64,000 nucleotides of DNA from Thermodesulfobium acidiphilum (GTDB taxonomy: Bacteria; Thermodesulfobiota; Thermodesulfobiia; Thermodesulfobiales; Thermodesulfobiaceae). The DNA lies in contig NZ_CP020921.1 of the NCBI RefSeq assembly GCF_003057965.1, positions 62,001 to 126,000 on the forward strand, in the 5' to 3' direction. This document shows, piece by piece, positions 55,017 to 60,112 of the stretch. The notes beneath the pieces were generated by a model. That model saw nothing but the letters and a program-made list of their open reading frames with translations, did not search any database and had not been told where the DNA came from. Within the stretch, counting starts at the first letter, position 1, and each line of letters begins with the position of its first letter. Position numbers and translations under genes: made by a program.

Positions 55017-55028
55017 ATTTGAAAGGAG

Positions 55029-55358
55029 GTGAATTTTTTGAGGAAAACAGATCTTATCAATGCAGTTGCTGAAAAATGTAAGGGTATGACTAAAAAGGAT
55101 TGCACAGGTGTTGTGGAAGCCGTTTTTGACTCTATTAAGGATGCTCTTAAGAGGAACGAGAAAGTTCAGTTAATTGGTTTTGGCACCTTTGAAGTCAGAG
55201 AAAGAAAAGAGCGAAAGGGCAGGAACCCAAGGAGCAAGGAAGAAATAATTATTCCTGCCATGAAGACTCCAGGCTTTAAGGCTGGGAAGGCTTTGAAGGA
55301 AGCTGTTCAACCAAAAAAAACTGAAAAAAAGTCTGTTAAGGGCGCAAAGAAAAAATAG
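55029..55358 (+). CDS. hup: HU DNA-binding protein with Lys-rich tail (likely start TTG 55038)
   Basis: [20 protein letters not shown]...FKAGKALK. Confidence 0.93.
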
Positions 55359-58200: not shown

Positions 58201-58273
58201 GATTAAAATAATGTTAATGTAAGGTTAAAATGATTTTATCTACTTGACAGAATTTTCTAATCTAGAGTAAATT
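58201..58273 (+). promoter_or_regulatory. ompM promoter with upstream 11-bp-period direct repeats
   Basis: GATTAA/TGTTAA/GGTTAA at 58201/58212/58223; TTGACA at 58244; TAAATT at 58268. Confidence 0.55.
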
Positions 58274-58495
58274 ACTATAAGCTAATTATAGTTTTTCAAC
58301 TTTGACAACTAAATAGCGTTTCGCTTCTCCCAAAGCTTTGAAAGGCTTTTTTAAAAGCCTTCAAAGAGCCTTTTACAGATGATTTCAATCTGCGAAAGAA
58401 GGAGGTGAAATCCCCCGAAAGCAAGAAATGATTCTGTAAAGAGGCTAATATATGAAACAAAAAAACTAAACTTTCCTAAAGGGGGATTTTGAAAG
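58274..58495 (+). ncRNA. Structured 5' leader of ompM (candidate cis-regulatory RNA)
   Basis: Hairpin plus boxA-like sequence, two long stems, decoy SD and anti-SD (see findings). Confidence 0.55.
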
Positions 58496-60073
58496 ATGAA
58501 AAAATTCGCTATGTTTTTTGTAGTAGCATCTCTTCTCGTTGCCCTTGCAGTTCCCGCTATGGCAGGACCATTCTCAGATGTACCAGCTAATTCTTGGGCA
58601 TACAAGGCAGTGCAAGATTTAGCAGCAAAGGGATTGGTCATTGGTTATGGCGATGGAACATTTAGAGGCGACAGACTTGCCACCCGTTATGAGATGGCAA
58701 TGGTAGTTGCAAGAATGCTTGATATGTATGAAAAGGGTCAAAACGCACAGGATCAAAAGATAGAGCTTAACGCTAACGACATCGCAACGCTTATGAAGTT
58801 AGCAGAAGAGTTTAAGTCAGAACTCGCATCTTTAAACGTCAGAGTTGCAGCGCTCGAGAAAAAGGCAGCTCTTGACACTGTGAACTTCACAGGAGACGCA
58901 AGATTTAGACTCGCAAGCGATAAGAGAACGTTTTCAGCGCTTTTACCAGGAACTATAGTTGCACCTGCGATAACAAATAACATTCCAGGTGGAATTGGTG
59001 GACAGGTTTTTTCGGTTGCAGGGACTCCTATTCCTGACAAGAAAGATGATACCTTTATGCGTTACAGAATCAGACTAAACGTTGCAGCACCGGTTGCAGA
59101 CAATATATCTTTTAATGGCAGACTTACTATGCAGAAAAATGCAGGAGTCAACGGCAATGGAGATAACTCAAATCCTATTACAGCAGCAAACACGGGTTAC
59201 AACAACAACCAGAATACTCTATTTGTAGAAAGGGCATATATCACATGGACTCTTAACCCATATCCTGTAACGTTTGTCCTCGGCAGACTTCCTACCCTGG
59301 ATACAGGCAGATATTATAACGTTTTCTTCCTTGATGCATCAGTTGAAGGCGGCCTTGTAGTATTTGACCTTAGCAATATGCTTCCATCAACATCAGTTTC
59401 AGCAGCATGGGCAAAGCTCTTTGACGCAGGCTTGGTTACCTCTTCGCAAGAGGCAAATGGCTTCAAAGACAAGGATGTATACATTCTAAATTTGAAGACA
59501 AAGCTCTTTAATACCTTTGGCTTAGAGGCAGACTACGGTTATGCAGATAAGCTAACATATTTTGGCGGCCTTAGTAATAATACTTCTGGCTATACTTCAG
59601 GCGCAAACGGCATTTATGGCAAGTATGATTGGTGGGCAGTCATAGGTAACTGGACTATGTATAACATAAATATGTGGGCAGGTTACAATGGCACATCTAC
59701 AGATATGCCAGCACAAACCGCCACAGGTCCAAGCCTTACAAGTTTACACTCTGTTAATGGCGGCGCATGGAGAGTTGGAGCTACCATTCCTCTTCCAGTT
59801 GGCGCACTTACAGGAGACTTCTGGTTTGGCGACAACAAGTGGTTTAACCCATTCATACTTAACACAATGGTTACTACAGAGTATAAGGACTACTACAACG
59901 TATACTACACGCTCCCGGTCGCAAAGAACGCATCTCTTACCCTTAACTATGACTACTGGAAGGGCAAGAAGCCATATGCAACTGATTCTATTAACGGCTA
60001 TTACTATACCTTTAACCCAGATCAGATTGACAAGGATCAAAGATACTACATCCAGATGGACGTAAAGTTCTAA
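58496..60073 (+). CDS. OmpM-type SLH-domain outer-membrane beta-barrel protein
   Basis: Signal peptide, FSDVPANSWAY..GYGDGTFRG..TRYEMA SLH domain, coiled coil, barrel (GDARFR..RYRIRL) and C-terminal Phe. Confidence 0.88.
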   Translation: MKKFAMFFVVASLLVALAVPAMAGPFSDVPANSWAYKAVQDLAAKGLVIGYGDGTFRGDRLATRYEMAMVVARMLDMYEKGQNAQDQKIELNANDIATLMKLAEEFKSELASLNVRVAALEKKAALDTVNFTGDARFRLASDKRTFSALLPGTIVAPAITNNIPGGIGGQVFSVAGTPIPDKKDDTFMRYRIRLNVAAPVADNISFNGRLTMQKNAGVNGNGDNSNPITAANTGYNNNQNTLFVERAYITWTLNPYPVTFVLGRLPTLDTGRYYNVFFLDASVEGGLVVFDLSNMLPSTSVSAAWAKLFDAGLVTSSQEANGFKDKDVYILNLKTKLFNTFGLEADYGYADKLTYFGGLSNNTSGYTSGANGIYGKYDWWAVIGNWTMYNINMWAGYNGTSTDMPAQTATGPSLTSLHSVNGGAWRVGATIPLPVGALTGDFWFGDNKWFNPFILNTMVTTEYKDYYNVYYTLPVAKNASLTLNYDYWKGKKPYATDSINGYYYTFNPDQIDKDQRYYIQMDVKF

Positions 60074-60086
60074 AAAAGCTTTTTTT

Positions 60087-60112
60087 AACCCCCGAGAAAT
60101 CGGGGGTTTTTT
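60087..60112 (+). terminator. Rho-independent terminator of ompM
   Basis: AACCCCCGA-GAAA-TCGGGGGTT followed by a T-run. Confidence 0.9.

Follow-up and report, generated by a model that had tools for sequence, protein, structure and literature searches.

A conserved leader of SLH-porin genes with a non-initiating Shine-Dalgarno site, a candidate mRNA stabiliser, in Thermodesulfobium

The DNA immediately upstream of an SLH-porin (OmpM-like) gene in Thermodesulfobium acidiphilum appears to specify the structured 5' untranslated leader, about 216 nt long by its predicted promoter, of an abundant porin mRNA. Within this leader, at the apex of a hairpin, lies a strong Shine-Dalgarno (SD) sequence at which translation does not appear to start. 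We propose that it acts as a 5' stabiliser of the STAB-SD type, displayed on the hairpin. Transcription of the leader, binding of the 30S subunit and stabilisation are what we infer here, and we give this reading a probability of roughly 0.45. The organism appears to employ the same orphan (that is, non-initiating) SD device throughout its genome, where it also stands in front of further ompM paralogs and of the genes for flagellin, pilin, sulfite reductase and APS reductase. The window, by which we mean the whole stretch of 64,000 nt that was analysed, comes from a single-contig genome of 1.77 Mb with 33.7% G+C. The comparison set included three genomes of the same genus, with all remaining genomes sharing only the domain.

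A conserved leader ahead of the porin gene

The features of the region are given below, with positions in the window.

58244..58273, + strand: promoter-like site (TTGACA, 18-nt spacer, TAAATT; 10/12 consensus matches)
58296..58495, + strand: conserved leader block, common to ompM paralogs and orthologs (8 full and 1 partial copies, 81-100% identity)
58326..58331, + strand: upstream C-rich tract UCUCCC, anti-SD-like, for which nested folding predicts the ribosome-binding site (RBS) as partner
58336..58366, + strand: hairpin P1, formed by inverted repeats (helix 1 has 10 pairs, 100% paired in 8/8 copies)
58367..58446, + strand: hairpin P2, long and irregular, whose apex holds both the orphan SD and the C5 tract
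58399..58408, + strand: orphan SD AAGGAGGTGA (GGAGGTG core invariant in 9/9 copies)
58411..58416, + strand: UCCCCC (C5) tract, complementary to GGGGGA of the RBS (invariant in 9/9 copies)
58447..58477, + strand: A-rich linker, predicted unpaired and of variable length (L043 has a 13-nt insertion and is still A-rich)
58478..58486, + strand: true RBS AAAGGGGGA, 9 nt before the ATG (invariant in 8/8 copies)
58496..60073, + strand: SLH-porin (OmpM-like) gene, 525 aa, with its ATG at 58496
60087..60108, + strand: terminator-like hairpin 3' of the porin gene

The predicted promoter implies a transcription start near 58280. Similar TTGACA/TATAAT-like sites lie 30-75 nt 5' of the conserved block in 9/9 copies, each copy having its own. 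The downstream protein matches Pfam SLH (45.8 bits) and DUF3373 (45.6 bits), and its residues 2-146 match the solved SLH-domain outer-membrane proteins PDB 8bys (E = 4e-22), 8bym (E = 2e-20) and SlpA 7zgx, all of which we take to be OmpM-type tethers. With an N-terminal SLH domain followed by a predicted C-terminal barrel region, it has the architecture of an OmpM-like SLH porin. Several ompM paralogs in G002 and G003 carry an insertion between the SLH/stalk and barrel parts (query 1-155, then 173-525).

BLAST located the leader in all four genomes of the genus, before SLH-porin (OmpM-like) paralogs, with three copies each in G000 and G001 and one each in G003 and G002, the last cut by a contig end. 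A search of metagenome contigs with the protein as query gave 13 loci, 8 of which include the N-terminus and upstream DNA; one of these eight (L043) has this leader. The third copy in G000 (locus L037, C1:1406272-1406567, - strand) is 97% identical and intact, and precedes a 34-codon ompM fragment with TGA; it is a dead ompM paralog with an undecayed leader.

The copies become similar near 58296, and the promoters upstream of that point vary among them. When each copy is compared with that in the window, the leader is 0.80-0.97 identical, as against 0.69-0.87 for synonymous third positions of the adjacent coding sequence (0.79-0.87 for all its nucleotides). The leader is thus more conserved than the synonymous sites beside it, and so is under constraint. 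A sequence-only reading of the window had not recognised a named riboswitch here. No Rfam 15 family reached its gathering score on the leader, and permissive E-values gave sub-threshold chance matches only. The best of these, to Histone3 (the eukaryotic histone 3' stem-loop; 25.1 vs 34 bits, 58339-58385, + strand), is merely hairpin P1, a chance resemblance. No published description of this leader was found in a full-text literature search; for OmpM, SLH and UTR together the match was a paper on the structure of SlpA.

The 246-nt leader is predicted to fold better than 200 of 200 dinucleotide shuffles (z = -2.87). A consensus fold was computed with RNAalifold from the 8 full copies; in the MAFFT alignment the 3' arm of P2 is misplaced for L043, so that alignment-based pairing is undercounted there, and single-sequence folds were used instead. 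Hairpin P1 contains a perfect 9-nt palindrome, and two of its pairs change on one side to G-U wobble, as would fit an RNA of the + strand. The stem arms of P2 (58367-58379 and 58433-58446) include a perfect inverted repeat of 8 nt (58372-58379 with 58433-58440), and the full stem of 13 pairs with one bulge appears in minimum free energy (MFE) folds. Folded singly, P2 takes a similar form in 8/8 copies, at -21.5 to -24.1 kcal/mol at 37 C. Its middle helix varies in sequence while the pairing stays (AUUUC:GAAAU in G000 vs CUUGC:GCAAG in L043); in the lower stem of L043 there is an A-U to G-C change, and three U-to-A changes open an internal loop. In the consensus fold GGAGG at the apex of P2 pairs weakly with the C5 tract, and a helix between UUCUCCC (58325-58331) and the RBS closes the whole. 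The UCUCCC tract is kept in 7/8 full copies and is replaced by CUAUUU in G001_c. No covariation above shuffles was detected, the whole-structure score being 0.075 against a shuffled mean of 0.077 for 8 sequences from ~5 lineages, with L043 partly misaligned. The structure of the leader is plausible on energy and qualitative grounds, and its two C-rich tracts probably pair with its two G-rich tracts in free RNA.

The inverted repeats might instead be transcription-factor operators in the DNA, with the real promoter close to the gene (TAATAT at 58447). The palindrome in P1 would suit such an element, and the copies retain a TATAT-like motif close to 58447. However, this motif has no -35 partner and the promoter scan gave no match near it, so an internal promoter at this position was rejected. 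In addition, the changes in P1 and P2 preserve G-U wobble or swap pairs, which fits RNA rather than a DNA palindrome, and all nine copies have their consensus-like promoters upstream of the block. We consider a DNA-level element very unlikely.

Other readings of the region were rejected. As a leader peptide, the mini-ORF at 58452 (MKQKN) does not survive in G001, which has ACG in place of its ATG; the GTG inside the orphan SD has no spacing; and the near-cognate ATC/ATT frames that follow the orphan SD differ between copies, in frame and in length. An intrinsic terminator or attenuator was dismissed because a U-run is absent downstream of both P1 and P2, the sole terminator-like call inside the leader being on the minus strand. 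Antisense ORFs at 58351-58641 and 58296-58460 have no Pfam match.

The orphan Shine-Dalgarno site as a stabiliser

The 3' end of the 16S rRNA of this genome reads GGATCACCTCCTTTCT..., and AAGGAGGTGA is a perfect complement to it over 10 nt. The predicted duplex with 16S rRNA has an energy of -18.5 kcal/mol at 37 C and -13.1 kcal/mol at 55 C; the corresponding value for the true RBS is -11.1 kcal/mol at 37 C. No ATG, GTG or TTG occurs 3-13 nt after the orphan GGAGG, and no conserved upstream ORF was found there. The sequence-only reading had reported an SD-like element without a start codon at working distance at 58399-58408 and had named the STAB-SD type as known. The element is real, non-initiating and invariant in 9/9 copies, and it resembles a STAB-SD. 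Within the window AAGGAGGTGA occurs four times, with 0.18 expected; two of the other three occurrences are the true RBSs of ferredoxin-like and HU-like ORFs, and the third falls within a coding sequence. Speaking against the stabiliser reading, the nested thermodynamic model has the orphan GGAGG engaged for the most part by the adjacent C5 tract (unpaired about 0.25), and the site is ~120 nt from the predicted transcription start, inside a hairpin rather than at a free 5' end.

As a stabiliser, the orphan SD would be a docking site for a 30S subunit or a whole ribosome that does not initiate there. The docked ribosome would block 5'-to-3' decay by RNase J, possibly after an upstream cut by RNase Y, and the porin message would be longer-lived. 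The genome encodes RNase J (TIGR00649, 525.6 bits against a cut-off of 400) and RNase Y (725.8 bits), and RNase E/G was not found in it (99.99% complete). It has the decay apparatus in which STAB-SD elements have been shown to work.

The best parallel is the STAB-SD of Bacillus thuringiensis cry3A (Agaisse and Lereclus 1996; Mathy et al. 2007, as treated in section 3.2 of PMC4113751). According to that section, RNase J1 trims the cry3A transcript from -558 to -129 and is blocked by a 30S subunit that occupies the non-initiating SD. Like the cry3A element, the ompM site is an SD-like sequence in the 5' UTR, ~90-125 nt before the start, non-initiating and complementary to 16S rRNA; both hosts encode RNase J, and both products are made in very large amounts. 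Unlike it, the ompM site crowns a conserved hairpin of 80 nt, flanked by the C5 tract, recurs as an orphan site before many genes of one genome and is known here from sequence alone, in a lineage for which the set searched contains no close relative beyond the genus. Judged by title, the STAB-SD literature is almost all on Bacillus or consists of reviews, among the matches listed.

A second comparison is with the hbs mRNA of Bacillus subtilis, in which, according to PMC5737220, ribosomes at a very strong SD block RNase J1 and RNase Y is the entry nuclease. As described there, hbs resembles the ompM leader in its structured 5' UTR with a very strong SD, but the protective SD of hbs initiates, whereas the ompM site does not. 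Elsewhere in the window, AAGGAGGTGA at 55023-55032 (+ strand) is the true RBS of the HU-like gene, which has a TTG start; this RBS recalls the strong hbs SD, which blocks RNase J1. A STAB-SD function does not explain the conserved C5 tract or UCUCCC.

Pairing between C-rich tracts and the ribosome-binding site

The sequence-only reading had gone further and proposed a translational switch, in which the C5 tract beside the decoy SD pairs with the RBS and represses translation until 30S or a ligand occupies the decoy and sets the RBS free. The elements that it listed are all at their coordinates: the stem arms, AAGGAGGTGA, GAAATCCCCC (58407-58416), GGGGGATTTT (58481-58490) and the ATG at 58496. 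The complementarity that it saw between anti-SD and RBS stands in the window copy, which has a perfect inverted repeat of 9 nt (58408-58416 with 58481-58489), but does not extend across the copies: a 10-bp form is present in 3/8 full copies, the other five having 6-7 bp. The core of 6 bp, UCCCCC:GGGGGA, is invariant in 8/8 copies, and because these six pairs never vary they cannot show covariation. Among the flanking pairs, one is A-U in three copies, U-A in two and broken in three, and three more are broken in 2-5 of the 8 copies. The covariation score of the whole structure equals the mean of the shuffles (0.075 vs 0.077), for a set of 8 sequences from ~5 lineages that is too small to give statistical power. 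The UCCCCC tract is also complementary to the adjacent GGAGG, with one A-C mismatch, and matches the unusual GGGGG of the RBS better than this neighbour. As a motif, TCCCCC is not rare in the window (20 found vs 17 expected).

Bare duplex energies favour the proposed pairing, at -13.2 to -16.8 kcal/mol for C5 with the RBS compared with -10.3 to -11.4 kcal/mol for UCUCCC with the RBS and -11.1 kcal/mol for the RBS with 16S rRNA; it may form as a loop-to-RBS pseudoknot. In the nested partition function, however, the RBS pairs with UCUCCC, and the probabilities of its pairs with the C5 region add up to 0.00-0.03 at 37 C and to no more than 0.60 at 55 C. Folding with CCCCC:GGGGG imposed yields a nested alternative that joins UCUCC to the decoy GGAGG. 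In the window copy this fold lies 3.5 kcal/mol above the MFE and in two further copies 4.4 and 1.0 kcal/mol above it, but the remaining three require 11.0, 10.2 and 6.9 kcal/mol, so that by these predictions a near-isoenergetic alternative is not conserved in the six copies computed. Two mutually exclusive folds are thus not conserved across the homologs, where the cost ranges from 1.0 to 11.0 kcal/mol by copy. Occlusion of the decoy and C5 together leaves the RBS paired with UCUCCC (unpaired 0.00-0.12), the opposite of the release that 30S binding had been expected to bring about.

Two related leaders, L020 and L048, share the lower stem of P2 and the RBS context CCTAAAGGGGG and have no C-rich tract at all; their SD-like site sits 5' of the hairpin. 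Folding predicts that the GGGGG of the true RBS is mostly paired in the copies of our leader (unpaired 0.01-0.19 at 37 C), but RBS accessibility at this level is ordinary for the genome, at the 26th-41st percentile of 653 genes. Known leaders that sequester the RBS with an anti-SD (riboswitches, RNA thermometers, standby sites) likewise have C-rich tracts complementary to the RBS; the ompM leader differs from them in having no conserved exclusive folds, no Rfam aptamer match and no unusual masking of the RBS. Complementarity between a leader tract and an RBS is, alone, no evidence of a switch. A two-state translational switch is weakly supported, and we regard it as quite improbable.

A related scheme would treat the leader as a four-part ribosome-sensing device, with two G-rich and two C-rich tracts in two pairing arrangements. 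In one arrangement UCUCCC would pair with the RBS and GGAGG with C5; in the other, UCUCC would pair with GGAGG and C5 with the RBS. Free 30S on the orphan site would then repartition the C-rich tracts. If this were true, synthesis of the main outer-membrane tether would be coupled to ribosome availability, and a set of envelope and energy genes in the lineage would share an orphan-SD input. We consider this scheme, too, quite improbable.

The orphan SD could also serve ribosome standby or enhance translation. Together with the A-rich linker, this strong upstream site would preload 30S for a partly masked, weaker RBS; translation would then be raised instead of, or besides, mRNA stability. Consistent with this are the paired GGGGG core of the RBS, the stronger predicted duplex of the orphan SD with 16S rRNA, and the A-rich, unstructured linker of variable length between the two sites. 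On the other hand, the predicted accessibility of the RBS is in the ordinary range for this genome, the distance from orphan SD to RBS is 50-120 nt, and the data here do not separate standby from stabilisation. We consider standby unlikely, and retain the STAB-SD function as the preferred reading of the leader.

Orphan sites across the genome

Orphan SD-like sites are found 50-95 nt before the start in 11 of 13 ompM upstream regions from the genus and in 7 of 8 from metagenomes. The regions without one are L026 and L027 (genus), which directly follow an upstream gene, and L055 (metagenome). Three further classes of ompM leader, which cannot be aligned with the one described above, also carry an orphan GGAGGTG-type site:

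L019 (G000:C1:585116), L012, L046, L047, L053: ompM leader class after a tRNA gene and terminator
G000:1109833, L021, L022, L050, L054: second ompM leader class
L020, L048: third ompM leader class

In the tRNA-linked class the orphan SD starts right after the U-run of the terminator. This arrangement is kept in 5 loci and suggests that the leader may arise by read-through or processing from the tRNA transcript.

Genome-wide, 12 copies of GGAGGTGA lie 25-200 nt upstream of starts, where composition predicts 0.2, and only 7 lie at RBS distance, as counted with crude ORF-based gene calls and with paralogous copies that are not independent. True RBSs favour AAGGAGG(T), with 85 near and 20 far sites. 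GGAGG is followed by TG at 16/69 far sites compared with 16/281 RBS sites (Fisher p = 4.8e-5; paralogs not independent). Counts of the reverse-complement motif are unusable as a control, contaminated as they are by the SDs of divergent neighbours. Orphan sites elsewhere in the genome, beyond the window, include:

G000:C1 157778, 298264, 1325527, 1552181, 1506274, 426708, 1515153, 1655252: orphan GGAGGTG(A) sites, 50-125 nt upstream of genes

Orphan sites without a plausible ORF precede the genes for flagellin, N-methyl pilin, NIR_SIR sulfite reductase and APS reductase beta, and for these four the site is kept in 4/4 genomes of the genus. In the flagellin and pilin leaders it forms an island within variable flanks, flagellin keeping the GGAGG core only. 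Further genes with an orphan site include those for a TauE exporter, an HGD-D protein, an MgtE-like protein and rpsL; the first three are not obviously highly expressed. The sulfite-reductase gene (L059, upstream region at G000:C1:1325465) has a GGGGG-type RBS, AAGGGGGTG, like that of ompM, and its 75-nt spacer is nearly invariant across 4 genomes. Among 13 distant SLH-protein loci, a comparable orphan site was found in one, L009 of the distant genome G026, where GGGAGGTGATAGG lies ~75 nt upstream of the gene with no ORF at working distance.

Flagellin brings in CsrA, a dimer of which blocks initiation on Bacillus flagellin leaders. For the ompM leader, a CsrA dimer could bridge a GGA at the apex of P2 (58401-58403) and the GGA of the RBS (58484-58486) and so block initiation. 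Besides these two GGA motifs, csrA is present, in the flagellar cluster (64-70 bits), with fliW elsewhere in the genome. The flagellin leader has three conserved GGA motifs, one of them orphan, and the other orphan sites, which contain GGA, could equally be CsrA sites. The likeness to the CsrA-controlled flagellin leaders thus lies in an upstream hairpin-loop GGA, an SD GGA and the presence of both csrA and fliW. Against it, the conserved core here extends to GGAGGTG, the complement of CACCUCC in 16S rRNA and longer than a CsrA site needs, and 76 nt of sequence separate the two GGA sites of the ompM leader. CsrA that works with FliW is known chiefly for flagellin, whereas the set of genes here is far wider and includes rpsL and sulfate-reduction genes. 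The CsrA explanation is strongest for flagellin; for the ompM leader we find it improbable.

The ompM leader itself has no published description that we could find, and the STAB-SD mechanism is already known from Bacillus; the leader is most likely of a known type rather than a new switch. We consider it to be of moderate interest, owing to the genome-wide recurrence of orphan SDs in an isolated lineage. Orphan SD stabilisers have been documented for a handful of Bacillus-type mRNAs. If the STAB-SD reading is true, a deep, isolated lineage with an outer membrane and Bacillus-type decay (RNase J and Y, RNase E not found) would share this device, and would use it systematically for those surface and energy-metabolism proteins that it makes in the greatest amounts. 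A GGAGGTG(A) remote from every start would then be a simple signature of long-lived mRNAs in uncultured relatives, and the leader could serve as a compact stabiliser when genes are expressed in hosts that are thermophilic or anaerobic.
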